64,000 bases of DNA. It comes from Candidatus Omnitrophota bacterium (GTDB taxonomy: Bacteria; Omnitrophota; Gorgyraeia; Gorgyraeales; Gorgyraeaceae). Shown in pieces: positions 24,964 through 63,904 of the stretch (within the stretch, counting starts at the first letter, position 1; each line of letters begins with the position of its first letter). Position numbers and translations under genes: made by a program. The stretch covers positions 127,745-191,744 of the forward strand of contig DNHS01000035.1 in the NCBI GenBank assembly GCA_003485765.1, given 5' to 3'. Below the pieces are notes generated by a model. It saw only the letters and a program-made list of their open reading frames with translations, had not been told where the DNA came from and ran no database searches.

Positions 24964-24965
24964 AT

Positions 24966-25049
24966 ATGTACGGGATATGTGGGAAGATTAGTTCAAATGT
25001 AGCGGTTAACGAGAAACTCATCAGTAAGATGTGCTGGACGCATACATAA
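24966..25049 (+). pseudogene. degenerate duplicate of the 5' end of asnB (28 codons)
   Basis: atgtacgggatatgtgggaagattagttcaaatgta… aligns base-for-base with the asnB start at 29324 (atgtgcgggatatgcgggaagattagtataaatggt…). Peptide MYGICGKISSNVAVNEKLISKMC versus MCGICGKISINGNVTEELIRKMC. Ends in a stop after 28 codons. Confidence 0.6.
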
Positions 25050-25185
25050 GTATATCGCATAGCGTAAAAAAGGAGGCCTTTCATGTCAAAGGGCGGATGG
25101 ATAGTAAAGTTTAATAATGTTGAGGTGGAAAGGTGTTATGCGGTTTCGTAGAGGAGGATTAATATAGGCGCTCCGGCAGTATATT

Positions 25186-26340
25186 ATGAATAAAAACATC
25201 AGACTTTCGATAATTTTTATAGTTTTTGCCATAGTTTCCCTGAATGTCTTTCCCGCGTATCCCTCGGATGATAGTTCCCCGGAGAAAATCACTGATATAT
25301 CAGACCGTAAATATGAACAAGTCCTGATCGATTTGCTGGATAACGCTAAAGAATCGATAGTTATTTCCATGTATGGTATAAGCCTTGGCTTCGGAGAAAA
25401 AAGTCCGGTAATGCTCCTATTAAATGACTTGTTAGAGGCTAGGAAACGGGGAGTCAGTGTTACAATGTATCTTAATACCCGCTTTAGGGACACCGATAAA
25501 TCTGAAGGGTCTTTTATTGAAAGCCCTGTGTTTAAGGAGCTGAAAGACGCAGGGTGTGATATTTACCTTATACCGTCCAGCCGTACGCTTCATGATAAAC
25601 TCATAATAGTTGATAGTAGATATGTGGTAATAGGCAGTACAAACTGGTCTAATTCTGCTTTGCGGAGGAATTTCGAATCCAATACCCTTATTGATTCGCC
25701 TCGCCACGCCGGTGAAAAACTCAAGCGGCTTGAAGATGTGTTGAAGTTTGTAAAGTCAAATACGGAAATATCCGGCATTCCTGATTATTTGGAAGATCTG
25801 CCTGAGGAGATAGCTATCTCTGAAGAGCTCCTGGTAAATAAGAAATACTTTTCCCGCATGGTTACAGGCCAGGATGAACGCGTTTTTGATCTATATCTCT
25901 TACTTTTAGGCTATAGCCAATTAACGAGTGAGAGTGAATTTTTCATAAACATGGAAGATATGGCATTGAGTTTGGGACTGCCTAGCGCATGGAGTTATAC
26001 TGCTTTAAGGAGGCAGGTGATAAGAAGCCTGAAGAGGCTCCGGAACCCGTATGATCTTATAAGCGTAGACTTTCTGCATGGTAAAGACGTCTTCGTAAAG
26101 CTTACAGATATCCCGGGTGATTCTTTTGTTATACCATCAGAGTCTATTATGAAGAGGCAAGGCGCTGATTTAACCTTGCGCCTGAAATTTCTTCTTATGA
26201 TAGAGGCTCTCTTCAAAAGCAGAGGGGAAGATATTTCTTCTATAGCAAAGTCTGATCTAGCTAAGCGTTTTAATGTAAATGAATCCACCATCCAGGAAGC
26301 CTTTAATGACTTAAAAAAAATTGAAAGAAACCGCCCTTGA
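25186..26340 (+). CDS. secreted phospholipase-D-superfamily (single HKD, Nuc-like) protein with C-terminal helical extension
   Basis: Signal-peptide-like N-terminus (MNKNIRLSIIFIVFAIVSLNVFPAYPSDD). One HxKx4D motif (HDKLIIVD…GSTNWS). The C-terminal about 200 aa contain winged-helix-like segments. Confidence 0.65.
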   Translation: MNKNIRLSIIFIVFAIVSLNVFPAYPSDDSSPEKITDISDRKYEQVLIDLLDNAKESIVISMYGISLGFGEKSPVMLLLNDLLEARKRGVSVTMYLNTRFRDTDKSEGSFIESPVFKELKDAGCDIYLIPSSRTLHDKLIIVDSRYVVIGSTNWSNSALRRNFESNTLIDSPRHAGEKLKRLEDVLKFVKSNTEISGIPDYLEDLPEEIAISEELLVNKKYFSRMVTGQDERVFDLYLLLLGYSQLTSESEFFINMEDMALSLGLPSAWSYTALRRQVIRSLKRLRNPYDLISVDFLHGKDVFVKLTDIPGDSFVIPSESIMKRQGADLTLRLKFLLMIEALFKSRGEDISSIAKSDLAKRFNVNESTIQEAFNDLKKIERNRP

Positions 26341-26377
26341 GATGTGTCTATATATAAAGCCTATTGCCTTTTTGCGA

Positions 26378-26454
26378 CATGTCTAATAGACACATTCCGC
26401 CAGTGCCTATTGACTTTTAAGTTAGAAGCGGGTAGATTTATATAGAGTTGGCTA
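26378..26454 (+). repeat. about 75-bp direct repeat R3 copy A, containing operator palindrome and sigma70-like promoter
   Basis: More than 90% identical to 31236-31304. Contains ATGTCTAATAGACACAT palindrome, TTGACT (26410-15), 17-bp spacer, TAGATT (26433-38). Confidence 0.6.
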
Positions 26455-26562
26455 AAGGGTGGGGGCAAATAGCCGCCGCCCTTGCAATATTACCATTCTT
26501 ATGTTATACTCATTATAGTGAGTAATAGTTCAATAAAATGAGTATTGGGGAGGGAAGGAGTT

Positions 26563-27129
26563 ATGCTTTCTAGTTATGTTATCTCTACTAATTCACAAAG
26601 CGCATTAAGCTTTCTTCTCGCGCATCCTGACAAATCACATTACGAAAGAGAAATTGCCAGAGGCGCTAAGATTAGTTATGGCTCAGCTAATAATATATTA
26701 AATCGGTTATACAAAGAAAACCTGGTCAAGAGAAAAATTGAAGGCAGGATGTGTTACTATTCTATTGATATGGCTAATCCATATATCAAAGAATTTAAGA
26801 TTCTAAATAATCTCCTTCTTATTGAATCTCTAATAGAACTTCTCAAGCCATATGCCCGCAAGATAATTCTTTACGGAAGCTGGGCTCAAGGAACCGATAT
26901 CGAAAATAGCGATATAGACTTGTTTATTATTACCTCAGATGAAGATAAAGTCAGATCTATTGTTGACAAATATTCTTATACTAACAAAGCAGCCAATAGA
27001 AAAATACAGGCTATTATCAATACCCCTGCTGATCTCCTGAACACAGATGAGAAAGAGGCTGTTTTTATGGAAGAAGTAAAACAAGGAAAAATCTTATGGG
27101 AGAGAGAAATTAATGAACATAACCTTTAA
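26563..27129 (+). CDS. winged-HTH + minimal nucleotidyltransferase (MNT) protein
   Basis: ATG at 26563 follows a GGAGGGAAGGAG RBS; the track start at 26545 is TTG. GSWAQGTDIENSDIDLFII is the pol-beta NTase GS…DxD motif. The N-terminal about 70 aa are wHTH-like. Confidence 0.7.
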   Translation: MLSSYVISTNSQSALSFLLAHPDKSHYEREIARGAKISYGSANNILNRLYKENLVKRKIEGRMCYYSIDMANPYIKEFKILNNLLLIESLIELLKPYARKIILYGSWAQGTDIENSDIDLFIITSDEDKVRSIVDKYSYTNKAANRKIQAIINTPADLLNTDEKEAVFMEEVKQGKILWEREINEHNL

Positions 27130-27544
27130 AGATTGCATAGCAAGTAAGAAAATATTCCGCTTTCCTCCGGCAAAGCACCTTGTAGATCTCGAAATCAAAG
27201 ATTCTGAGGATGATCTGCAATCAGCCGAGGAAGAATTTTCTAAAGCAGGATATAAATGGGCTACGATTAAAGGCTACTATTCAATGTTCCATGCAGCGCG
27301 AGCTCTCCTGTACTCTCGGGGATACAGAGAAAGAGGCCATTATTGTCTTTACCTGGCAATAAAAGAATTCTTCGTTAAAGAAGAGAAGCTAAATCTTCAA
27401 TTGGCAGAAGATTTTAACAATTCTATGATTCTGCGGGAAGAAGCGGATTACAAAAGAAAATTTTCTCAGAAAGGCGCTTCTGGAATAATTGAAAGCGCAA
27501 AAAAATTCCTTAAGGCGGCAAAAGAACTACTAAATCCCCTTTGA
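27113..27544 (+). CDS. HEPN-domain protein (partner of the upstream MNT)
   Basis: All-helical 143 aa with an R-x(3-6)-H-like segment (RERGHY) and REEADYKRK. Start overlaps the MNT stop by 17 nt. Confidence 0.6.
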   Translation: MNITFKDCIASKKIFRFPPAKHLVDLEIKDSEDDLQSAEEEFSKAGYKWATIKGYYSMFHAARALLYSRGYRERGHYCLYLAIKEFFVKEEKLNLQLAEDFNNSMILREEADYKRKFSQKGASGIIESAKKFLKAAKELLNPL

Positions 27545-27585
27545 GCGCCACAAAAGTTCAGTATTTGAATCACAATGATGTTGAA

Positions 27586-28293
27586 ATGATCAAATTTGGC
27601 ATTAGACAGTCATTTGATAATATAGAACAGATAGAAGAGAGATATTCAAAATTGGATGCGCCTGTAGAGTTGGCTCTGCCTTACTACTGGGATATATATG
27701 AGCCTGTTAGAGGTCGTTTAACGGAAGTAGTTGAAAAGATAAGATCGTACGGGACAAAAGTTTTAAGTGTGCATGCGGTTCAGGCTCCTATTACGGATGA
27801 ACGATTTAAGATATGGGGAAATGAAATAGCTGATTTCGCTAGGACGCTCGGGGCGACGAATATTACTTTGCACCCTAACAATGTTAATAAGGATAAAGCT
27901 GTCCAAGACGAAGCGCTCAAGAATTTGGAATATTTTTCCGGGCTATATAAAAACGATGTGGTCTTTTGTATTGAAACTTTTGAAGGTAAGCGAAGAGTTT
28001 TTACTCCCGATGAAATAGCATCATTTAACTTGCCGATGACATTGGATACATCACATATACGAGAGGACGAAAAGGTCTGGAGCTTGATTAAGGGATATAA
28101 AGAGCGCATCTTCAATGTGCATCTTTCAGCAAGAGAAGGCGCGAGACAACATCTGCCTATTGACGATTTTTGCAAAGAGGTGGTGCGCTATCTGATAGAT
28201 AACAAATGGACCGGGAATGTAATATTGGAGTATCTACCAGAATTTCACGGGCATCTGATAAGCGATCTAGAATTGCTGAAAGCAATGCAGTAG
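27586..28293 (+). CDS. xylose-isomerase-like TIM-barrel protein (AP-endonuclease-2 / sugar-phosphate isomerase fold)
   Basis: Alternating beta-strand/His-Glu pattern (MIKFGI…LSVHAV…ITLHPN…CIETFEG…DTSHI…NVHLSA…EYLPEFHGH), spaced as in endonuclease IV and sugar-phosphate isomerases. The track start is TTG 27541 overlapping the HEPN stop (TTGA); first ATG is 27586. Confidence 0.4.
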   Translation: MIKFGIRQSFDNIEQIEERYSKLDAPVELALPYYWDIYEPVRGRLTEVVEKIRSYGTKVLSVHAVQAPITDERFKIWGNEIADFARTLGATNITLHPNNVNKDKAVQDEALKNLEYFSGLYKNDVVFCIETFEGKRRVFTPDEIASFNLPMTLDTSHIREDEKVWSLIKGYKERIFNVHLSAREGARQHLPIDDFCKEVVRYLIDNKWTGNVILEYLPEFHGHLISDLELLKAMQ

Positions 28294-28489
28294 GTCTTAA
28301 TAGAGGATTTCATGAGAGAGGCCGTAGAGTTTTTGAAGAACTTAGTTTTTGGCAAGGAATATCTTAAGGCGACTATAAAAGAATACTAGCATCGGGGACG
28401 TCTTACTGCGCTGTAACATTTTACCATATAATAAGTTACGAGCCTTATGGTTCTAAAATATAAGGCATTTCTATGTGATGTATTCGAAT

Positions 28490-28574
28490 CGTGACGCGCT
28501 GCGTCACGAATTAAGCTGGACGCACTATAGGAAAAATTACTCATCAAGATATAGCCCAGGTTTAAACCTGGGCT
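28490..28574. repeat. two GC-rich perfect hairpins/palindromes in the Phd-RelE upstream region
   Basis: cgtgacgcGCTgcgtcacg (28490-28508) and the perfect 22-mer AGCCCAGGTTTAAACCTGGGCT (28553-28574). Confidence 0.5.
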
Positions 28575-28595
28575 GCTGCGAGCTGAACTGTTACC

Positions 28596-28624
28596 TTGAC
28601 AGATATCCAAAAATAGGATATACT
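28596..28624 (+). promoter_or_regulatory. sigma70-like promoter of the Phd/RelE pair with internal operator
   Basis: TTGACA(28596-601)-17 bp-TATACT(28619-624). The spacer contains inverted repeat ATATCC-N7-GGATAT. Confidence 0.45.
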
Positions 28625-28666
28625 TTTAATGTAGACACAAAGGTAACTACAAAGGAGGTGAGTGTG

Positions 28667-28957
28667 ATGAGCATTGCTGCTGATTTATTAAAAGCTAATC
28701 ATGTTGGCATCAGGGATATTAAAGAACATCTATCTACACGGCTGCTTAAAGATATTTTGGTAATAACTGATAGGGGCACGCCTGTAAGTGTAAATCTGCC
28801 TTATTCTGATGTATTAGAATTGATAGATATTATTGATGAGGCGGCGGATTTGGAAACTATGGCTACAGTTAGCGAAGGAAGATTGGCAATAAGGGAAGGC
28901 GCAAAAGGTATACTGGTTGCCGATCTTTTTAAAAGAATAAGGACGCAGCGTAAATGA
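28667..28957 (+). CDS. Phd/YefM-family antitoxin
   Basis: ATG 28667 preceded by AAGGAGG; the longer track ORF from 28475 has no RBS and runs through the palindromes. Sequence …GIRDIKEHLSTRLLKDILVITDRGTPVSV… fits Phd/YefM. Stop overlaps the toxin start (ATGA). Confidence 0.6.
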   Translation: MSIAADLLKANHVGIRDIKEHLSTRLLKDILVITDRGTPVSVNLPYSDVLELIDIIDEAADLETMATVSEGRLAIREGAKGILVADLFKRIRTQRK

Positions 28958-29262
28958 AATACCAGGTTAGGTTCCCCGGTCATTCTATTGAGAAAAAATT
29001 TGAGAAATTTCTTTTAAAGATTCATCCGGTAAGCCTGCAAGAAGAAATTATGCAAGACCTGAGTAAGCTTGCCGATAACCCCCGGCCTTATGGTGAAAAG
29101 GCTTTTAAGAAACTCAAGCTGCCTATTCAATTTTATCAGTATGTTGCGCAATACAGAATAAGAATAGGCGACTATAGAATGCTTTATGATGTAGATGATG
29201 AGAAAAAGATTGTATGGATTTTAGCATTGAGAAGGCGTTCGGAAAAAACATACAGAACATAA
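28954..29262 (+). CDS. RelE/ParE-family toxin
   Basis: C-terminus YRIRIGDYRMLYDVDDEKKIVWILALRRR is the RelE/ParE/YoeB signature. Confidence 0.7.
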   Translation: MKYQVRFPGHSIEKKFEKFLLKIHPVSLQEEIMQDLSKLADNPRPYGEKAFKKLKLPIQFYQYVAQYRIRIGDYRMLYDVDDEKKIVWILALRRRSEKTYRT

Positions 29263-29323
29263 CCCACTAAACACATAGGATAGAGGCGATTATTGACACA
29301 TTTGTGTAAATAAAGGGAGACGT

Positions 29324-31204
29324 ATGTGCGGGATATGCGGGAAGATTAGTATAAATGGTAATGTGACAGAAGAACTCATCAGGAAGATGTGTGGGGTGCT
29401 TACGCATAGGGGGCCGAATGACGAAGGGGTTTATGTAAAAGGAGGTATGGGGCTGGGGCATAGGAGGCTCGCTATTATTGATTTATCGCAGGCTGGGCAT
29501 CAGCCGATGAGTAATGAAGATGGTTCTATCTGGATAGTTCTGAATGGAGAGATTTATAATTTTATTGAGTTAAGAGAGGCGCTTGAAAAAAAAGGCCACA
29601 GGTTTAAATCTCATGCAGATACTGAAGTAGTATTACATTTATATGAGGATAAAGGCGTAGAATGCCTTAAGGATTTAAGAGGGCCTTTCGCGTTCGCGAT
29701 ATGGGATAGCAGGAAAGAACTTCTTTTTATTGCCAGAGATAGGATTGGCAAAAAACCATTATATTACCATTATAGAAATCAGACATTGATCTTTGCTTCC
29801 GAGATTAAGGCTATCCTGCAGGATCCTGATGTATCGAGAGAGGTCAACAGACCTGCAATAACAGATTATCTAAGTTATGGATATACGCCTACGCCAGAAA
29901 CTATGTTTAAGAATATTGTGAAGCTCCCGCCTGCTCATTTTATGGTCTATGAAAAAGGCAATATAAGATTAGAAAAATACTGGGAACTTGATTTTTCAAA
30001 AAAGATAAAAATGTCCGAGAAAGATTATTGCCATAGAACCATGGAACTTCTTGAAGAATGTACTAAGATACGCCTAATAAGCGATGTACCGCTAGGAGCT
30101 TTCTTAAGTGGGGGCATAGATTCGAGCGCTGTAGTGTATATGATGAGCAAACTAAGTTCAAAGCCTGTAAAGACATTTTCCATAGGTTTCGATGATAAAG
30201 AGTATAGCGAATTAAAATACGCTAAAGTTATTGCAGATAGATTTAAAACAGAACATCATGAGTATATTGTTAAGCCAGACGCTATAGAACTTTTACCAAA
30301 ACTCGTATGGCATTACAATGAACCTTACGCTGACTCTTCAGCTCTGCCCAGTTATTATGTGGCGAAGATGACCAGACAAGAAGTGACTGTCGCTTTAAAC
30401 GGAGATGGAGGGGATGAGGATTTTGGAGGATATGAAAGGTTTATGGCAGCAAGATTCGCTGAATCAATCAGTAAATCGCCTGTGCCTTTCAAGGATAAAA
30501 TTATAAAGCTTATTGTAAGTAGTATTCCAGAATCCATGGGATTTAAGGACTCTAGGTTCAGGCTTAGGAGGTTTTTAATCGAGTTATCAAAGCCATGCAG
30601 GGAAAGGCATTACAATTGGATATCGATATTCAGCGAGCATGAAAAGGAAAACATGTTTACAGCAGGATTTGCCGGAGAACTTGCCGGAAAGAGTTCATTT
30701 AATTATTTAGACAGAGCGTTTAATGAATGCGGCTCAAAAGATATTGTAGATTTAGTGATGTCAGCGGATATAAAGACTAATCTATTGGATGACCTGCTTG
30801 TGAAAATGGATATAGCAACAATGGCGAATTCGCTGGAAGGCAGGTCGCCGTTTTTAGATCATAAGATGATGGAGTTCTGTGCCGCTATGCCGAGCAATAT
30901 GAAAATAAAAGGCACAAAATTAAAATATATATTAAAGAAAGCGTTATCCAAGGCATTGCCTAAGGAAATACTTTCCCGAGGCAAGATGGGATTCGGCGTG
31001 CCACTGGACGCCTGGTTTCGTAAAGAATTAAAAGACTATTCTTATGGCATTTTAATGAGCGATAACTGCGTAAATAGAGGTTATTTTAAAAAAGACGTTA
31101 TAAAGAAAATCCTTGATGAACACACCTCCGGCAAAGCCAATAACGGCGCCAGGATCTGGAGCCTATTATTCCTGGAATTATGGCATAAGGAATTTATAGA
31201 TTAA
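29324..31204 (+). CDS. asnB: asparagine synthase (glutamine-hydrolysing) family amidotransferase
   Basis: MCGICG N-terminal Cys nucleophile, RGPNDEG, SGGIDSS PP-loop, 626 aa. Confidence 0.9.
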   Translation: MCGICGKISINGNVTEELIRKMCGVLTHRGPNDEGVYVKGGMGLGHRRLAIIDLSQAGHQPMSNEDGSIWIVLNGEIYNFIELREALEKKGHRFKSHADTEVVLHLYEDKGVECLKDLRGPFAFAIWDSRKELLFIARDRIGKKPLYYHYRNQTLIFASEIKAILQDPDVSREVNRPAITDYLSYGYTPTPETMFKNIVKLPPAHFMVYEKGNIRLEKYWELDFSKKIKMSEKDYCHRTMELLEECTKIRLISDVPLGAFLSGGIDSSAVVYMMSKLSSKPVKTFSIGFDDKEYSELKYAKVIADRFKTEHHEYIVKPDAIELLPKLVWHYNEPYADSSALPSYYVAKMTRQEVTVALNGDGGDEDFGGYERFMAARFAESISKSPVPFKDKIIKLIVSSIPESMGFKDSRFRLRRFLIELSKPCRERHYNWISIFSEHEKENMFTAGFAGELAGKSSFNYLDRAFNECGSKDIVDLVMSADIKTNLLDDLLVKMDIATMANSLEGRSPFLDHKMMEFCAAMPSNMKIKGTKLKYILKKALSKALPKEILSRGKMGFGVPLDAWFRKELKDYSYGILMSDNCVNRGYFKKDVIKKILDEHTSGKANNGARIWSLLFLELWHKEFID

Positions 31205-31235
31205 TACCCTTCCCTTTGATAGCCCACTTTCATGG

Positions 31236-31304
31236 CATGTCTAATGGACACATTCTGCCAGCGCCTATTGACTTTTAAGTTAGAAGCGGGTAGATTTATA
31301 TATA
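31236..31304 (+). repeat. direct repeat R3 copy B with promoter (TTGACT 31268-73 / TAGATT 31291-96)
   Basis: Near-identical to 26378-26454. Confidence 0.6.
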
Positions 31305-31328
31305 GTAATTAAAAATCTGGAGGGATAA

Positions 31329-31899
31329 ATGACAAAAGAGGCAGCTGTTACTAAAATTGCTATTTTTCGGAAGAAAGAGATCAGGAAAACCATTCATAAG
31401 AATGAATGGTGGTTTGTTATTGAAGACGTTATCTCAGCTTTGATTAATTCCAGTGATCCTAAGCAGTATATACAGAGAATGAAACAAAGGGATCCAGAGT
31501 TGGCCAAAGGGTGGGTACAAATTGTACATACCCTTGAAATTCGCACAGAAGGTGGAAGGCAGAAGATGAACTGTGCAAATACAGAAGGTATTTTTCGCAT
31601 TATCCAGTCTGTTCCTGACCCCGTCCGCGTATAAAAAGTTTAAAGGATTAAAGCGGCAAAATCTGCGGGATCATATGAATGACTTGGAGCTAATCTTCTC
31701 AATGCTTGGAGAGGCATCCACTAAAGAAATCACCATAAATAAAAATGCTCAGGGATTTATTGAGACTAAACAAGCGGCCCAGGAGGGCGGCGCTGTCGCA
31801 GGCAATGCTAGAAAAGAATTGGAAAGAAAGAGCGGTAAAAAAGTATTAACGCGTGAAAATTATCTAAAGGCAGCTCAAAGCAAGAAACTCTTGAATTAA
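31329..31899 (+). pseudogene. Bro-N domain / DinD-like gene split by a +1 frameshift
   Basis: ORF 31329-31634 carries a Bro-N-like N-domain (…NEWWFVIEDV…TEGIFRIIQSVP). The +1 frame ORF continuing to 31899 carries a DinD-like C-terminus (…QGFIETKQAAQEGGAVAGNARKELERKSGKKVLTRENYL). The frames switch near the C-run at about 31617. Confidence 0.5.
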
Positions 31900-31917
31900 T
31901 GGAGTAATATTATTTTA

Positions 31918-31966
31918 GGAAAGAAAAATTTTTGAAAGAAAACGCTTTTGAGATGTGTCTTATATA
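31918..31966 (+). repeat. repeat R2 copy 1 (ends in GAGATGTGTCTTATATA box)
   Basis: Matches 34083-34140 apart from a 9-nt indel. Confidence 0.5.
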
Positions 31967-32022
31967 GTAGCGAATCAAGGACTCTAATCCGCTGATTTTG
32001 TAAAAAATCCTTACTTTCGTCC

Positions 32023-32051
32023 TTGACGATTTCCTTACTTTATGGTATATT
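32023..32051 (+). promoter_or_regulatory. sigma70-like promoter of the AbrB-type antitoxin cassette
   Basis: TTGACG-17 bp-TATATT, then RBS GGGAGGTGAG and ATG 32074. Confidence 0.45.
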
Positions 32052-32073
32052 TGATAACGGGAGGTGAGAAAAT

Positions 32074-32331
32074 ATGACAGTTACCATGACCGCAAAGAAT
32101 CAAATAACCATACCTAAAAAGATCACAGAAGCCTTGGGTTTAGAAAAGGGGTCTATGTTCAAGGTAGAGGTTTCTAAGAATGGGATAGAGTTTATTCCTC
32201 TGGAGACAAAAGAGAGGGAGTTTACCCATGAGGAATATACAAAATTAGAAACCCTGGCAGTACAAGAAAAGGGAAAAGAGAAGCGCGTGACAAAAAAGCT
32301 TATCGATAATTTAAAAAAAGGGAAAATTTAA
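32074..32331 (+). CDS. AbrB/MazE/SpoVT-type (swapped-hairpin) antitoxin
   Basis: N-terminus TMTAKNQITIPKKITEALGLEKGS is the SpoVT/AbrB looped-hinge motif. Confidence 0.7.
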   Translation: MTVTMTAKNQITIPKKITEALGLEKGSMFKVEVSKNGIEFIPLETKEREFTHEEYTKLETLAVQEKGKEKRVTKKLIDNLKKGKI

Positions 32332-32334
32332 TCA

Positions 32335-32472
32335 ATGCCTTTACGAAGGCCTTATTATGAAGCCGGGATAGAAGGAAGTATTCGTGTTGTGATAAGACAA
32401 GAGGGGCAAATGTGTATTGCAGTATTAGCAGGGAATCACGACCAAATAAGACAATTTCTGGCCACTGGGTAG
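32335..32472 (+). pseudogene. truncated RelE/ParE-like toxin remnant (45 aa)
   Basis: Begins 4 nt after the antitoxin stop. Peptide …SIRVVIRQEGQMCIAVLAGNHDQI resembles only the C-terminal beta-sheet of RelE/ParE; the N-terminal half is absent. Confidence 0.3.
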
Positions 32473-32558
32473 AGAACCTTCCCCTATATAAACCAAACAT
32501 AGAGGCGCGTTATGGAAAGGACGAAGTCGCCAAGGCAAGAGAGCTTAGCTTTATGATA

Positions 32559-32620
32559 GTCTCCTCCATGCGTTCGGATAATCCTTTAAGGAATATTGGA
32601 TATGTGGTTGGGATTTTAAG
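32559..32620 (+). repeat. repeat R1 copy 1
   Basis: About 90% identical to 34022-34082 (gtctcctccatgcg…ggataatcctttaag…gggattttaag). Confidence 0.55.
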
Positions 32621-32718
32621 ATATGCCCGATAGACATATTTCGTCAGTACCTATTGACAAAATAAAAATATAGATTATACTCTATATAGAGATAGGTTAT
32701 AATCTATATGCAAGCATA

Positions 32719-33441
32719 GTGGGGATTTCTATGGATTTGAAGCTAAGAGAGGCACAAAAACTTGTTCTGAAGATATTTTCGCAAGAGGCAGAGGATTTCG
32801 CGCTTGCCGGCGGCACAGCACTTGAATTATATTACCTGCGTCACAGATTTTCTTCGGATCTGGATTTTTTTTCAAGAAAATACCCCGTTTCAGAAATAGA
32901 TACTTTGGTAGAGGCCTTTGAAAAACATCTGGATCAGAAAATTCATCTGGAATCAGAATTTGTTTCCGTCAATAAGGCGTGCGTCCGGTTTTATGCTATA
33001 CCGGTCAAGGGTTCGGATAGGCCATTAAAGATTGATTTTGTTGAAGATGTTGTGTGTACTCGCCCGGTAATACGGAAAATTGACGGTGTCCGCGTGTATA
33101 GCGCGGAGGATTTATACCTGCATAAAATAGCCGCTATTTCTGGCACTCAAGTTATAACAGATGAGGTCGGCAGGCAAGTCAGCGAAGGCCGCAAAGAGGC
33201 GCGGGATGTATTTGACGTGTACATGCTTTCAAAAAAAATACAGCCATTGCACATATTCCTGCGCAGTCTTTCGCCCCGGTTCCAAAAGGGGATAGTCCAC
33301 TGGTATCGGACATTTTCCAGGCAGGAACTCAAGCTCGCGCTAATGGAGCTGGATATTTACGATACTGAATTCAATGCCAGGGAATTGGTTATTTATCTGG
33401 AAAACGAGGTCAAGCAATTAGCCAAGGAGGCAATAGGATAA
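32719..33441 (+). CDS. AbiEii/AbiGii-family nucleotidyltransferase (type IV TA toxin-like, DUF1814)
   Basis: …FALAGGTALELYYLRHRFSSDLDFFS… is the AbiEii GGTAL…R.SxDLDF NTase motif. An alternative ATG is at 32731. Confidence 0.7.
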   Translation: MGISMDLKLREAQKLVLKIFSQEAEDFALAGGTALELYYLRHRFSSDLDFFSRKYPVSEIDTLVEAFEKHLDQKIHLESEFVSVNKACVRFYAIPVKGSDRPLKIDFVEDVVCTRPVIRKIDGVRVYSAEDLYLHKIAAISGTQVITDEVGRQVSEGRKEARDVFDVYMLSKKIQPLHIFLRSLSPRFQKGIVHWYRTFSRQELKLALMELDIYDTEFNARELVIYLENEVKQLAKEAIG

Positions 33442-33950
33442 TGATTATTTCAAAATATTTTTGGGACATAAGTGAAACTGCCCTGAAAGAAACAGCCAGG
33501 ATACTTAAAAATCCAAAACATCCTCAATTTCCGGTTAAAATGGTAATTTTTATGTCGCGCTGTGATAAGCCAAAGGAGCTATTTTCCTTGATTGCCAAGG
33601 ATGAGTTTATAGACGCATGGCCAAAGATCAGGGCTCAATGGATAAAACGCGCGCGGCAGTCAGATTTCAGGGATTGGTGGGAAACAATCTATGAACATCT
33701 CGTAGATGCGCATGGACGAGCGCGCAGAAAACCCACAAGCGCCACGCCGGTTTTTTTCCGAAAGTTTGGAGCGCTTATTAAAGAAGCGAGGATTCGGAAA
33801 GGGTTGAGCCAGAAACAATTGGCGCATCGCATAGGTATGAAACAGCCGGATGTTTCCAGGATAGAAGAAGGCAGGAAAAATATCACGCTATACACCGTCA
33901 TGCGTTTCTGCAATGTTTTAGGCATTAAGAAAATTACAGTAGGCCAGTAA
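33441..33950 (+). CDS. protein with unknown N-domain and C-terminal XRE-family HTH
   Basis: C-terminus LIKEARIRKGLSQKQLAHRIGMKQPDVSRIEEGRKNITLYTV is Cro/C1-type HTH. The ATG overlaps the AbiEii stop by 1 nt (TAATG). Confidence 0.6.
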   Translation: MIISKYFWDISETALKETARILKNPKHPQFPVKMVIFMSRCDKPKELFSLIAKDEFIDAWPKIRAQWIKRARQSDFRDWWETIYEHLVDAHGRARRKPTSATPVFFRKFGALIKEARIRKGLSQKQLAHRIGMKQPDVSRIEEGRKNITLYTVMRFCNVLGIKKITVGQ

Positions 33951-34021
33951 AACGTCAACTATTTTTTCGACCCTGTAATTATAATTGTCGCATAACAAAT
34001 GTAGCCAAAGCAGTCAAAAAA

Positions 34022-34140
34022 GTCTCCTCCATGCGGCCGGATAATCCTTTAAGAAACATTGGATATTTAGTGGGGATTTTAAGGAAAGAAAAATTTTAAA
34101 AATTTTTGAAAGAAAACGCTTTTGAGATGTGTCTTATATA
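34022..34140 (+). repeat. repeats R1 copy 2 + R2 copy 2 (ends in GAGATGTGTCTTATATA box)
   Basis: Direct duplicates of 32559-32620 and 31918-31966. Confidence 0.55.
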
Positions 34141-34168
34141 TGAAAGAGGGCTTGGGCATGGGGTGATA

Positions 34169-34197
34169 TTGACACATTTGTGTAAATGTGGTATATT
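34169..34197 (+). promoter_or_regulatory. sigma70-like promoter of RHH-MazF cassette with ACACAnnTGTGT operator
   Basis: TTGACA-17 bp-TATATT. The 20-mer ATTGACACATTTGTGTAAAT is also present at 29292-29311 immediately upstream of asnB. Confidence 0.45.
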
Positions 34198-34217
34198 TTG
34201 TTCAGGAGGTGAGTTAT

Positions 34218-34469
34218 ATGGTAAAAAAGAATATGGGAAGGGAAAGATTGAGCATTGATGTATTGCCGGAAGAACACAGGCAGATTAAGGCATATGCCGC
34301 GCTGTATGGTAAGACAATGAGAGAATATGTATTGGAATGCGTACAGAAAAAACTGCGAGAGGAAACTGAACAAAAGGAATTAGCTAATATGAGCGCATAT
34401 CCTGACAAGGATTCTATATTAAACAGCGTATGGGAAAATAAAAAGGATGCGGCATATGATAAAATGTAA
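34218..34469 (+). CDS. ribbon-helix-helix (CopG/ParD-like) antitoxin
   Basis: ATG 34218 after CAGGAGGTGAG. ERLSIDVLPEEHRQIKAYAALYGKTMREYVLECV is beta-strand then two helices. Confidence 0.6.
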   Translation: MVKKNMGRERLSIDVLPEEHRQIKAYAALYGKTMREYVLECVQKKLREETEQKELANMSAYPDKDSILNSVWENKKDAAYDKM

Positions 34470-34806
34470 ATACGGAGACATTGTATTAGTAAACTTTGGT
34501 TTTTCTGAAGGGATTGGGTTTGAGAAAAGGCCTGCGTTGGTTATAAGCAGTGAGGCATATCATGCGGAAAGGCAGGAGGTAGTTATCCTGGCTATTACCA
34601 GCAATGTAAATAGAATATTCTTGGGCGACACAAAGATTTCTCAATGGAAAGAAGCTGGATTGCTTTATCCTTCACTTGTTACAGCGATTATAAGGACAGT
34701 AAAATCAGATATGATTTTTAGGAAAATAGGGGAGATCGGGCCGGATGATTTAAAGAGGGTAGAGAGCAGTATAAAGAAAATTTTTGGAATAACTGGAGAA
34801 AAGTAA
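34447..34806 (+). CDS. MazF/PemK-family toxin (mRNA interferase)
   Basis: YGDIVLVNFGFSEGIGFEKRPALVISSEAYH is the PemK/MazF signature. Confidence 0.75.
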   Translation: MRHMIKCKYGDIVLVNFGFSEGIGFEKRPALVISSEAYHAERQEVVILAITSNVNRIFLGDTKISQWKEAGLLYPSLVTAIIRTVKSDMIFRKIGEIGPDDLKRVESSIKKIFGITGEK

Positions 34807-36867: not shown

Positions 36868-37278
36868 ATGACTATGAACAAGAAAGAAAAAGGAGAAATA
36901 GCGGGATTAAGAGGGGAACTGCGAAGCTCTGTGGGAGAATTAAGAGGAGAATTGCAGAGTTCTGTGGGAGAATTAAGAGGGGAACTGCGAAGCTCTGTGG
37001 GAGAATTAAGAGGAGAGTTGCGAAGCTCTGTGGAAGAACTAAGAATACACATGGGTGTCTTGGTAGAGGGTTTGCGTTCAGAAGTTAGGGTGGTAGCTGA
37101 ACAATATGGAAGCGTTGTAAAAAAGCTGGAAGAACATGACAGGAGATTTGATAAAATTGATCTAAGATTTGACAGAATCGACTTAGAGTTTATCGGTATG
37201 AAGACAGGTTTGTTTGATACTAGTCATAGAGTAGATGATCACGAAACAAGAATCAGAAAATTAGAATTAGCTAAATAA
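36868..37278 (+). CDS. small coiled-coil protein with four tandem 11-aa repeats (GELRSSVGELR)
   Basis: ORF preceded by GAAAGGAGG. Repetitive heptad-like N-half and a conserved-looking C-half (…RRFDKIDLRFDRIDLEF…). Confidence 0.4.
   Translation: MTMNKKEKGEIAGLRGELRSSVGELRGELQSSVGELRGELRSSVGELRGELRSSVEELRIHMGVLVEGLRSEVRVVAEQYGSVVKKLEEHDRRFDKIDLRFDRIDLEFIGMKTGLFDTSHRVDDHETRIRKLELAK
36914..37045 (+). repeat. 4 x 33-bp near-perfect tandem repeats inside the coding sequence
   Basis: Unit ggaactgcgaagctctgtgggagaattaagagg, repeated head-to-tail. Confidence 0.7.
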
Positions 37279-42555: not shown

Positions 42556-42628
42556 TATTTAGGCCTTAAACAACTTTACATTTCAACAATGTTGATTTGT
42601 AAAGTTGTTTGGAAACATAGGAGTTTAC

Positions 42629-62060: not shown

Positions 62061-63191
62061 ATGAAGATATTAATTACATACGCTTATGCTGGAGTGGGGC
62101 ATAAAAAAGCAGCCCTGGCAATAGAAAAGGCCTTGGCCGGCCATAGCGGAGTTGAAGTTAAAAATATAGATGTCCTGGATTATACTAATGACTTTTTTAA
62201 GGCCTCTTATCCTGGTGTCTATTTATTTCTTATAAATAAAACGCCTACTTTGTGGGGGCTGTTTTATTATTTATTGGACTCTAGGGCAGTGGATTTTTTC
62301 ATGGCGCCATTGAGGAAGTTTATACATAGGCTGAATTGCAAAAAATTTATAGAGTTTGTAAAGGCTGAAAACCCTGACGTAGTGGTTTCAACGCATTTCA
62401 TGCCGAGTGAGATTATTTCCGGACTTAAAGAAAGCGGCGAGTTCAGAGGAAAGCTGGTAAATGTGGTGACTGATTTTATAGCGCATTCTTTCTGGATGGC
62501 CAGGTCCAGCGATTATTTCATAGGGGCTATTCAGAGGACTAAGAATGATCTTTTAAGGCGCGGTGTGCCTGAAGAAAAGATCAGGATCATGGGCATTCCG
62601 TGCGACCCTGTGTTCAGCATTTCAAAGGGCAGGGAAAATTTAATCAAGCAATTAGGCATAGAGTCTGGATTTTTCAATGTGCTTATAATGAGCGGAGGAT
62701 TTGGCACAGGGCCTATGAAAGAAATTGTCGCTGAAATTAATAACCTGGATCCTGATACTAGGGATAAGATGCAATTAATTACAATCTGCGGCAAAAACGA
62801 ACTTTTATTTCATGAGTTAAGAAAAATGGTTCAGGGCCTCAAGGTAAGGTTAAATGCCTTTGGTTATATGAATAATGTGGATGAATTTATGGAAGTAAGC
62901 GATATAATAGTTACTAAGCCGGGCGGCCTGACTATCTCAGAGGCGCTTTCAAAGACTTTGCCAATGATTATAGTCCAGCCGATACTGGGCCAGGAGACAA
63001 GAAATTGCAAAATTTTAACAGGATATGGGACTGCTGTAAAGGCAAAAAATACCAGAGAGGTTTGCGAGTTAATAGAAGAATTTGCTACTTCTCCTGAAAA
63101 AATGATTGGCACCAGGACCAGGATAAAGCTTCTTCGGTACCCGGACGCCGCTAAAAATATCGCAGAACTTATAATGGCACAAACAACTTGA
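62061..63191 (+). CDS. MGDG-synthase/UgtP-like (GT28) diacylglycerol glycosyltransferase
   Basis: MKILITYAYAGVGHKKAALAIEKAL N-terminus and GT28 C-terminal region (…VTKPGGLTISEALSK…). Confidence 0.7.
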   Translation: MKILITYAYAGVGHKKAALAIEKALAGHSGVEVKNIDVLDYTNDFFKASYPGVYLFLINKTPTLWGLFYYLLDSRAVDFFMAPLRKFIHRLNCKKFIEFVKAENPDVVVSTHFMPSEIISGLKESGEFRGKLVNVVTDFIAHSFWMARSSDYFIGAIQRTKNDLLRRGVPEEKIRIMGIPCDPVFSISKGRENLIKQLGIESGFFNVLIMSGGFGTGPMKEIVAEINNLDPDTRDKMQLITICGKNELLFHELRKMVQGLKVRLNAFGYMNNVDEFMEVSDIIVTKPGGLTISEALSKTLPMIIVQPILGQETRNCKILTGYGTAVKAKNTREVCELIEEFATSPEKMIGTRTRIKLLRYPDAAKNIAELIMAQTT

Positions 63192-63217
63192 CACTTTAAC
63201 ATTGTTAAAATGTCAAG

Positions 63218-63904
63218 TTGTTTGGAGAGATAGGGATTATGAATATTATAGAAATTGTTGGAACAATTGCGGATGAATTAAAAATAAAGGCGTATATTGT
63301 AGGCGGGTCTGTGAGGGATAAGCTGTTAGGTATGTCTAATTATGACCTGGATTTTGTGGTAGAAGGGGATGGGATTAAGTTTGCAGAAGTTTTGAATAAA
63401 AAATTAAAGGGCAGATTAATAACATACAAGGCATTTGGCACAGCTACTATTGAGCTTAAAGGAAAAAGGATAGATGTTGTCACTGCCAGAAAAGAGTCTT
63501 ACAAATATCCTGCAGCTTACCCTATTGTAAAACCAGGCGCGATAAAGGACGATCTATTCAGAAGGGATTTTACAATAAACGCAATGGCTCTGGCCATAGA
63601 TAAAAAAGGCTTAGGCAAATTAGTGGATTTCTACGGCGGCCAAAAAGATTTAACAAAAGGCGTGATAAGAGTATTGCATGATAAAAGTTTTATGGATGAC
63701 CCAACCAGGATTTTCAGGGCTGTGAGATTTTCAGTGAGATTTGGTTTTAAAATAGAACCGCATACGAAAAAGCTTATGAAGGAGGCGGTGCTGGACGGAT
63801 TCTTGGGCGAGGTGAATGCAGGCAGGATCAGGAAAGAGATTGAGCTATTCTTAAAAGAAAAGAATCCGAAGAAATGCTTGGATGTATTCAGTAAATTAAT
63901 GTAA
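63218..63904 (+). CDS. poly(A) polymerase / CCA-adding enzyme head-domain protein (short form, 228 aa)
   Basis: YIVGGSVRDKLLGMSNYDLDFVV (GGxVRD…DxD) and RxxFTINAMA. Terminates well short of the usual about 400 aa. Confidence 0.55.
   Translation: MFGEIGIMNIIEIVGTIADELKIKAYIVGGSVRDKLLGMSNYDLDFVVEGDGIKFAEVLNKKLKGRLITYKAFGTATIELKGKRIDVVTARKESYKYPAAYPIVKPGAIKDDLFRRDFTINAMALAIDKKGLGKLVDFYGGQKDLTKGVIRVLHDKSFMDDPTRIFRAVRFSVRFGFKIEPHTKKLMKEAVLDGFLGEVNAGRIRKEIELFLKEKNPKKCLDVFSKLM

Follow-up and report, generated by a model that had tools for sequence, protein, structure and literature searches.

In HEPN toxins the tyrosine of the RX4HXY motif is the site of AMPylation, which neutralises the toxin (PMC11586414). 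AbiEii toxins are silenced by antitoxin-induced autophosphorylation, which a phosphatase reverses in vitro, and the role of phosphatases in reactivating AbiEii in vivo was left to be explored by the authors of that preprint; toxins of the MenT/AbiEii type modify tRNA, with MenT adding nucleotides at the 3'-CCA end (bioRxiv 10.64898/2026.01.19.700257). What recent work has described is the silencing, by phosphorylation for AbiEii/MenT toxins and by AMPylation for HEPN toxins, more than its reversal in vivo or the repair of the damaged tRNA. Here we describe a locus of a Candidatus Omnitrophota bacterium (GenBank assembly GCA_003485765.1, contig DNHS01000035.1, forward-strand positions 127,745 to 191,744) in which a toxin-antitoxin (TA) pair of a winged-helix nucleotidyltransferase (wHTH-MNT) and a HEPN protein is followed by a gene for a xylose-isomerase-like TIM-barrel protein, called TIM in what follows. 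The whole stretch of 64,000 nucleotides (G+C 36.6%) is referred to as the window, all positions are those of the window, and compared loci carry L numbers.

An initial annotation of this DNA had read the three genes as one translationally coupled, possibly three-component defence or TA system. Its three co-directional open reading frames (ORFs) and its domain calls were borne out, the latter by Pfam matches, with the winged helix of the window protein below threshold. The grouping was not. Two independent units lie side by side, an MNT-HEPN module at 26480-27560 and the TIM gene at 27586-28293, and across uncultured phyla TIM characteristically stands as the last, co-directional gene behind interchangeable TA operons, most commonly nucleotidyltransferase ones.

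Two adjacent, independent units

The elements at the junction are these:

26378-26448, + strand: truncated intergenic repeat Y, with a promoter-like TTGACT-17-TAGATT at 26410-26438; 94% identical to 31236-31306
26444-26488, + strand: 45-nt remnant of a Bro-N interior, matching 31496-31540 of the Bro-N ORF at 76% identity
26480-27560, + strand: self-contained mobile wHTH-MNT/HEPN TA module of 1.08 kb (promoter, operator, two genes), bounded by the ends of its DNA homology to L123-L130
26482-26510, + strand: promoter-like TTGCAA-17-TATACT of the module, with TG ahead of the -10 hexamer, from a promoter scan and conserved in relatives
26508-26523, no strand: inverted repeat ACTCATTATAGTGAGT across the -10 hexamer, candidate operator, read from the sequence and kept in four other loci
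26563-27129, + strand: wHTH-MNT, 188 aa, presumed antitoxin and autoregulator; winged helix plus Pol-beta-type nucleotidyltransferase with a GS...DID motif
27113-27544, + strand: HEPN protein (PF05168), 143 aa, presumed RNase toxin with an invariant R72-x3-H76-Y77
27574-28383, + strand: block common to relatives by blastn, made up of a 12-nt leader, the TIM coding sequence and the first 24 codons of a gene here called c7
27586-28293, + strand: TIM-barrel protein, 235 aa, endonuclease-IV-like predicted metallo-phosphoesterase; conserved H63, H96, E130, D154, H157, H179, H189 and E215 all present
28312-28389, + strand: c7 remnant of 25 codons, 21 of 24 residues (88%) identical to the N terminus of P0390; homology to relatives ends at 28383

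The MNT protein matched the Pfam models Polbeta (1.7e-11; 44.6 bits, cut-off 26.9) and NTP_transf_2 (1.2e-7), and the Pol-beta core (GS-x9-11-DxD) is present in it as LYGSWAQGTDIENSDIDLF. The N terminus scored below threshold against the MarR_2 and TrmB winged-helix models (about 2e-4), and close homologs have a precomputed TrmB match. The HEPN protein matched PF05168 at 1.6e-12, and its R72-E-R-G-H76-Y77 is invariant in 10 homologs, with the spacing R-x3-H-Y, close to but not the same as the RX4HXY of HepT. Of the PADLOC models, PDC-M05A matched the MNT over its full length (residues 2-179, 1.2e-24) and PDC-M05B matched HEPN residues 6-139 (2.7e-4); TIM matched none. Against the NCBIfam MntA equivalog the MNT reached 38.1, the cut-off being 60.

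Many relatives of the wHTH-MNT are likewise 188 aa long, and the MNT-HEPN pair recurs at 68-80% identity in four independent contexts (L123/L124, L125-L127, L128/L129 and L130), the flanks of which are unrelated to one another (DUF2341, LptFG, PilZ and HATPase_c_4). In none of these four contexts does a TIM-barrel gene lie beside the pair. At the DNA level the homology to the L123-L130 loci (71-79%) extends from 26480 or 26496 to 27523-27560 of the window. It takes in the sequence cTTGCA...gcTATACT upstream of the MNT gene, which is kept in L123, L125, L128 and L130 and thus, with the window, in five independent loci, and the overlap of the MNT and HEPN genes that had been noted initially, which is 17 nt long and identical in these four unrelated loci. 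Upstream of the MNT gene lies GGAGGGAAGGAG, a strong ribosome-binding site, and near the inverted repeat there is an extra ATGAGT half-site at 26538-26543; we regard ACTCATTATAGTGAGT as a candidate, plausible operator to which the winged helix of the MNT could bind. Given that the four contexts lack TIM and that the DNA homology is confined to 26480-27560, promoter and operator included, the pair is an ordinary, autonomously mobile TA module of the type VII kind, matching the PADLOC candidate PDC-M05. Within it the MNT would presumably neutralise the HEPN RNase and repress the operon via its winged helix.

The promoter scan gave 30 promoter-like sites, a total not above expectation (23±5 after shuffling), and we relied only on those conserved across loci. 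By this standard the promoter of the module is its own, and the initial assignment of the whole unit to the repeat-borne promoter, which belongs to a repeat copy that is a truncated remnant, is not supported. Scans of the window for Rfam families and tRNA genes gave no match.

For the TIM gene the initial annotation had left open a start at TTG 27541, overlapping the HEPN stop. More than 100 TIM homologs have a length of 235 aa and an N terminus reading MIKFGIRQ, so the start is ATG 27586. The HEPN stop is then followed by 41 nt without a Shine-Dalgarno sequence, and translational coupling, which holds for MNT and HEPN with their 17-nt overlap, fails for HEPN and TIM.

The sequence on either side suggests how the two units came together. 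In relatives the gene order is asnB, repeat Y, Bro-N, TIM, c7, and a full copy of the repeat drives Bro-N and then TIM; Bro-N stands directly upstream of TIM in L020, L045, L048, L081 and L086, and repeat Y occurs also in L028, L042, L043, L048 and L052. In the window repeat Y breaks off at 26448 and is followed by the piece of Bro-N, the MNT-HEPN module up to 27560, 13 nt, and the TIM block. By blastn, 27574-28383 is 76-93% identical to L045, L048, L059, L060, L063 and L081, with both ends of the homology at these coordinates, and the AAGGA ribosome-binding site found upstream of TIM in relatives is missing. Since remnants of repeat Y and Bro-N lie 5' of the MNT gene, the TIM block ends at 27574 and, within a cut c7, at 28383, and AAGGA has been lost, the adjacency of MNT-HEPN and TIM is the product of a recent cassette replacement in which Bro-N upstream of TIM was exchanged.

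The c7 family itself comprises proteins of 255-257 aa, 60-90% conserved in Omnitrophota (for example L060 2387-3160 and L133 5001-5768). It has no Pfam or NCBIfam match, and an AlphaFold2 model of high confidence (mean predicted local distance difference test, pLDDT, 91) found no match in the PDB with Foldseek (best E 0.2). Usually c7 is paired with a P-loop kinase (AAA_18/AAA_33), with or without TIM, in what is possibly a new two-gene module. We considered c7 as a link between TIM and RNA repair and rejected it: no domain or fold match pointed that way, and because c7 and its kinase occur without TIM, c7 says nothing about TIM.

The TIM protein: predicted enzyme class and spread

TIM scored 35.8 bits against PF01261 (AP_endonuc_2), above the gathering cut-off of 31.1, and its AlphaFold2 model is an eight-stranded barrel with pLDDT 91. 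Foldseek returned 98 PDB matches at E<=1e-3, headed by the isomerase Art22 (1e-9) and including several epimerases, with E. coli endonuclease IV (EndoIV, Nfo) at 3.5e-9 and a TM-score of about 0.7; in a viral structure library the top matches were AP endonucleases of giant viruses (9e-10). By sequence, the TIM family profile had no relative in the PDB (best E 0.22) and the curated nfo models left TIM unmatched. The one NCBIfam match was to CbiR (NF041277), which scored 45.9 bits where 105 is the cut-off (4.9e-12, residues 80-216).

We then compared the metal ligands, using an E. coli Nfo sequence checked against 1QTW. Two alignments were discarded: hhalign of a low-diversity TIM alignment against Nfo gave nothing useful (probability 2%), and addition of Nfo to the TIM alignment with MAFFT shifted the register of the barrel by one strand. 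A diverse profile of 53 TIM sequences with a mean identity of 22% put the Nfo register right and aligned to Nfo with an E value of 3.5e-5. The nine metal ligands of Nfo (H69, H109, E145, D179, H182, H216, D229, H231 and E261) are assigned to three metal sites. Seven of them pair with TIM residues (H96=H109, E130=E145, D154=D179, H157=H182, H179=H216, H189=H231 and E215=E261), each at least 90% conserved in the 53-sequence alignment. The His/Glu/Asp pattern of TIM does resemble that of EndoIV, in support of the metal site suggested initially. To our knowledge, the sugar isomerases with this fold have a site of just four ligands and lack counterparts of H96, H157 and H189. These comparisons point to TIM as a predicted multi-metal phosphoesterase in a distinct, uncharacterised clade of PF01261 that is neither Nfo nor CbiR. 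The latter is a cobamide-remodelling phosphodiesterase that acts on a non-DNA substrate and has conserved His, Asp and Glu metal residues, and its example means that the AP endonuclease 2/xylose-isomerase-like superfamily includes non-DNA phosphodiesterases (PMC7733943).

The gene is rare and its homologs are close to one another. More than 250 were found, mostly of 235 aa and 65-94% identical, in metagenome-assembled genomes of Omnitrophota, Endomicrobiales/Elusimicrobiota, Planctomycetia, Smithellaceae, Humimicrobiales, Atribacterota, Actinomycetota and Babeliales, about eight phyla; among 185,579 species representatives, 33 have it. An exhaustive HMMER search of 1.84 billion protein cluster representatives gave 219 matches with E<=1e-3, of which 39 reach E<=1e-30, and the close homologs all fall in one 50%-identity cluster. 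Between the window TIM and its relatives the ratio of nonsynonymous to synonymous substitution (dN/dS) is 0.04-0.15. L041 and L042 hold fragments of the gene, which can therefore be lost. Together these data describe a rare, horizontally spread gene under strong purifying selection, separate from MNT-HEPN.

A family-pattern scan of viral contigs gave no TIM match. A 44%-identical homolog is encoded in the region 4001-5780 of L131, a phage-like contig of 94 kb with genes for TK, PhoH, HNH, RNase T and NT5C; there a DSPc dual-specificity phosphatase gene overlaps the stop of the TIM homolog and the RNase T gene is near.

Operon context and proposed role of TIM

The locus set comprises 121 loci with 100 distinct TIM sequences, and upstream sequence was available for 86 distinct loci. 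The genes directly upstream of TIM in these 86 are:

20 of 86: AbiEi and AbiEii (PF08843)
12 of 86: AbiEi_2 and NTP_transf_8
6 of 86: MNT, with or without HEPN (the window, L056, L067, L099, L119 and L111)
5 of 86: Bro-N
5 of 86: Metallophos (ApaH/PrpA-like in the core clade)
2 of 86: Fic
2 of 86: DUF6088 (AbiEi-like)
34 of 86: other genes, including Phd-PIN, HigBA, ParE, KilA-N, AAA_14-DUF4143 and IS200, IS91 or DDE transposases

In 81 of the 86 TIM shares its strand with the gene upstream, and in 11 of the 20 AbiEii loci the gap to TIM is -4 or -1, a start/stop overlap. When all flank occurrences of a gene are counted, AbiEii takes position -1 in 20 of 22 (p=9e-17) and NTP_transf_8 position -1 or -2 in 12 of 14 (p=6e-7), and MNT is weakly enriched, with 5 of 13 at -2 or -3 (p=0.05); these p-values are nominal, ignoring shared ancestry in loci that are not phylogenetically independent. 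AAA_14-DUF4143 and PLD genes are scattered through the flanks. Both MNT and HEPN are present in the flank of four of the six MNT-type loci, and L111 has an MNT only.

TIM reassorts among these partners. Median pairwise identity is 75% for TIM, 48% for AbiEii and 37% for AbiEi; the divergence of TIM is uncorrelated with that of AbiEii (Spearman -0.01); and on the TIM tree the partner types are intermingled. Loci that now have Fic or another partner retain the 3'-terminal ~35 nt of an AbiEii gene ahead of TIM, and the TIM-linked HEPN proteins that we aligned from L056, L067 and L099 belong to a different subfamily, 26-30% identical to the HEPN of the window.

Calcineurin-like phosphoesterases (ApaH/PrpA-like in the core clade) form a second recurrent neighbour of TIM (L019, L027, L099, L101, L102 and L035-L039) and are the main neighbour of a distant TIM branch at 40-45% identity. 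Literature searches on AbiEii with TIM barrel, on xylose isomerase-like with toxin-antitoxin and on PF01261 with defense returned nothing relevant, and we found no earlier account of AbiE or MNT-HEPN operons with a TIM-barrel gene attached to them.

The reading that we prefer, and to which we give even weight for and against, is that TIM is an accessory metallo-phosphoesterase, in function as yet a prediction, which owes its expression to TA operons and has a conserved substrate. TIM would be transcribed by read-through from the TA promoter and thus be made when the TA operon is derepressed. The partners among which TIM reassorts are far less conserved than TIM itself, so its action is probably directed at a conserved substrate of the cell and does not depend on specific contacts with partner proteins. 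Most likely this substrate is a phosphoester created or left by these TA systems. It could be the 3' end of tRNA, after extension by a toxin of the AbiEii/MenT type or a cut by HEPN, or else the phosphate or AMP group by which type VII toxins are neutralised. Enzymes of the EndoIV type cleave at O3'-P and remove 3' blocks, a chemistry that would suit the trimming or healing of tRNA 3' ends. That TIM is highly conserved whichever partner it has speaks slightly more for a universal RNA substrate than for specific recognition of toxins; phosphatases as recurring neighbours (Metallophos, DSPc) would agree with either candidate.

Several points weigh against this reading. As regards the enzyme, the fold of the model does not by itself separate EndoIV from sugar isomerases and epimerases, as the Art22 match at 1e-9 illustrates; H63 is placed on the strand where Nfo has H69 by strand topology only; and D229 of Nfo aligns to the non-conserved R187 of TIM, with no conserved counterpart. 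As regards the context, the neighbourhood statistics are nominal, the locus ORFs come from a simple longest-ORF heuristic, and neighbours were clustered with annotation on cluster representatives only. The association is also not exclusive: about 40% of the TIM loci have non-nucleotidyltransferase or non-TA genes upstream, and the sub-clade to which the TIM of the window belongs has Bro-N, IS200 or DUF6088 there, never AbiEii. Finally, the expression of TIM in the window is uncertain, given the lack of a Shine-Dalgarno sequence and the 41 nt that follow the HEPN stop. A crude scan found no terminator-like site between HEPN and TIM, and an internal promoter-like site at 27401-27429 (10 of 12 matches) could drive TIM independently.

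In a rival explanation TIM is a passenger, functionally unrelated to its neighbours, for example an AP endonuclease/3'-diesterase that serves DNA repair on its own or a defence nuclease independent of them. The gene would then be a mostly promoterless cassette of TA and defence islands that captures read-through, and its adjacency to AbiE would reflect a few cassettes of shared ancestry plus shuffling. The great diversity of upstream partners (Bro-N, KilA-N, the IS200, IS91 and DDE transposases and AAA_14-DUF4143 among them), the lack of co-divergence with AbiEii, the mosaic of shuffled cassettes, shared junction repeats and gene remnants that makes up the island, the dispensability shown by the fragments in L041 and L042, and the presence of genuine AP endonucleases among the nearest structural relatives all favour such a passenger. 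Against it, AbiEii and NTP_transf_8 are almost always at -1 or -2 on the same strand, with AAA_14-DUF4143 and PLD scattered; more than half of the AbiEii cases show a stop/start overlap; and at least three different families of nucleotidyltransferase TA systems are found repeatedly upstream of TIM, in separate clades of its tree. We regard the passenger as possible but, on this evidence, unlikely.

The accessory phosphoesterase that we prefer can also be given a more specific form, in which the TIM family is a dedicated eraser or repair enzyme and a portable third component for unrelated TA families that share phosphoester chemistry. As an eraser, TIM would strip the phosphate or AMP that holds AbiEii/MenT-type and HEPN toxins off and would be their in vivo reactivator; as a repair enzyme, it would trim or heal tRNA 3' ends extended or cut by the toxins. 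This dedicated role we put forward tentatively and think rather doubtful.

The initial proposal in its strict form, that MNT, HEPN and TIM are one obligate three-component defence or TA system with the TIM nuclease as co-evolved effector or partner, is very improbable. The three genes do run in one direction at close spacing, no terminator-like site separates the last two, and the order MNT-HEPN-TIM does recur in L056, L067, L099 and L119. Nor is TIM a housekeeping sugar isomerase without MNT-HEPN pairs beside it elsewhere, the case that the initial annotation had named against itself. But the closest relatives of the MNT-HEPN pair have TIM in 0 of 4 contexts, the MNT and HEPN of the recurring loci are of the different subfamily described above, and TIM proteins 93-94% identical to that of the window have IS200 or Bro-N upstream. 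The junction itself holds the remnants of the replaced Bro-N and has lost the TIM ribosome-binding site, and PDC-M05 accounts for the MNT (M05A) and the HEPN (M05B) only. With an MNT-type gene upstream in 6 of 86 loci, and AbiE, NTP_transf_8, Fic, PIN, HigBA, ParE, Bro-N or transposases elsewhere, the triplet is not conserved. What the position statistics support is a broader version of the idea, an exchangeable phosphoesterase accessory to TA operons, above all nucleotidyltransferase ones, its function being predicted.

Least probable of all is a metabolic enzyme, be it a sugar or sugar-phosphate isomerase/epimerase or a CbiR-like cofactor-remodelling phosphodiesterase in a variable polysaccharide region: the database names ('sugar phosphate isomerase/epimerase'), CbiR as the best named NCBIfam match, an isomerase at the top of the Foldseek results and glycosyltransferase-type genes such as PMT_2 in the flanks of the window agree with it, but the CbiR score is far below its cut-off, the annotated neighbours in about 120 loci include no cobamide or sugar-pathway gene and are TA, defence and mobile-element genes instead, so rare a gene is 65-94% identical across phyla, and the extra conserved H96, H157 and H189 align to EndoIV ligands.

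As a strongly conserved, horizontally mobile and endonuclease-IV-like predicted phosphoesterase, found repeatedly right behind operons for these very toxins, TIM is a concrete and testable candidate for the reversal or repair role. If it is a mere passenger, the locus would still illustrate how the exchange of cassettes at shared junction repeats rebuilds TA islands in Omnitrophota, and how misleading adjacency in a single genome can be.

The surrounding array and comparison with described systems

The two units lie in a co-oriented array of TA and defence cassettes with shared junction repeats (24965-34806), itself within a polysaccharide-biosynthesis cluster. Its other members are:

25186-26340: PLD (DrmC-like) and HTH
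28667-28957: Phd-like
28954-29262: ParE
29324-31204: asnB
32074-32331: MazE
32719-33441: AbiEii
33441-33950: HTH_3 protein, following AbiEii
34188-34469: ParD
34447-34806: PemK/MazF
26313-26355, 31924-31966 and 34098-34140: repeat X, at cassette junctions
26378-26448 and 31236-31306: repeat Y, at cassette junctions

Bro-N is split in the window into two overlapping ORFs (31329-31634 and 31573-31899) and is probably a frameshifted pseudogene; an intact Bro-N of 277-278 aa is found directly upstream of TIM in L020, L045, L081 and L086. Short intergenic modules recur at cassette junctions in the window and in the related Omnitrophota contigs L020, L028 and L042-L048. The motif TTTTAAGTTA stands at several junctions just upstream of TIM, and an exact repeat of 21 nt, TATTGACACATTTGTGTAAAT, precedes both asnB and ParD (29291-29311 = 34167-34187). 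The junction repeats could be recombination hot spots or parts of an integron-like system; no integrase was seen among the ORFs annotated at 23.7-35.6 kb, where no search aimed at IntI or attC was made. At the left edge of the array, 81 nt (24965-25045) are 75% identical to the 5' end of asnB at 29323-29403, which looks like what is left of another gene similar to asnB, or like a scar at the boundary of a 4.3-kb block of PLD, MNT-HEPN, TIM and Phd-ParE.

Two further repeats lie outside the array. Four tandem copies of a 33-nt unit, ATTAAGAGGGGAACTGCGAAGCTCTGTGGGAGA, at 36906-37070 give an 11-residue protein repeat in the ORF 36868-37278. An intergenic repeat of 54 nt occurs at 42568-42621 and 63181-63234, its copies 81% identical, and its long palindrome, AAACAACTTTACA...TGTAAAGTTGTTT, could serve as an operator or a terminator.

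Set beside known systems, the MNT-HEPN module resembles the type VII HEPN/MNT (HepT/MntA) systems and PDC-M05 in being a mobile two-gene module with the MNT gene first and the genes overlapping, and it shares with HepT/MntA the Pol-beta core (GS...DxD) of the MNT and the Arg...His-Tyr motif of the HEPN protein. It differs from them in the N-terminal winged helix of its MNT, in the NCBIfam score of that protein (38, below the MntA cut-off of 60) and in its HEPN protein, which is of PF05168 with R-x3-H-Y and not RX4HXY (PMC11586414); AMPylation in this module would be by analogy.

TIM has the fold of endonuclease IV (Nfo/Apn1), with seven of the nine metal ligands aligned and conserved and an eighth topologically equivalent. 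Unlike endonuclease IV, it is about 50 residues shorter, has no counterpart of D229 and is found in TA islands, not in a DNA repair context. CbiR belongs to the same superfamily and is the best named profile match of TIM, but this match is partial and below the cut-off, and no cobamide genes are found among the neighbours.

The AbiE/MenAT systems, with their DUF1814 nucleotidyltransferase, are linked to TIM as the commonest upstream partner of its family, and their toxin modifies tRNA and is neutralised by a reversible phosphoester modification. They have been described as two-gene systems, and we found no paper with a TIM-barrel third gene; in the window, TIM stands apart from AbiEii (32719-33441). 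Tripartite and enzyme-antidote TA systems are exemplified by toxin-antitoxin-chaperone and by DarTG. In the role proposed here TIM would share their concept, in which a further component or an enzyme modulates or undoes the action of the toxin. It has no homology to them, is better conserved than the TA pair and can be exchanged between TA families that are unrelated.

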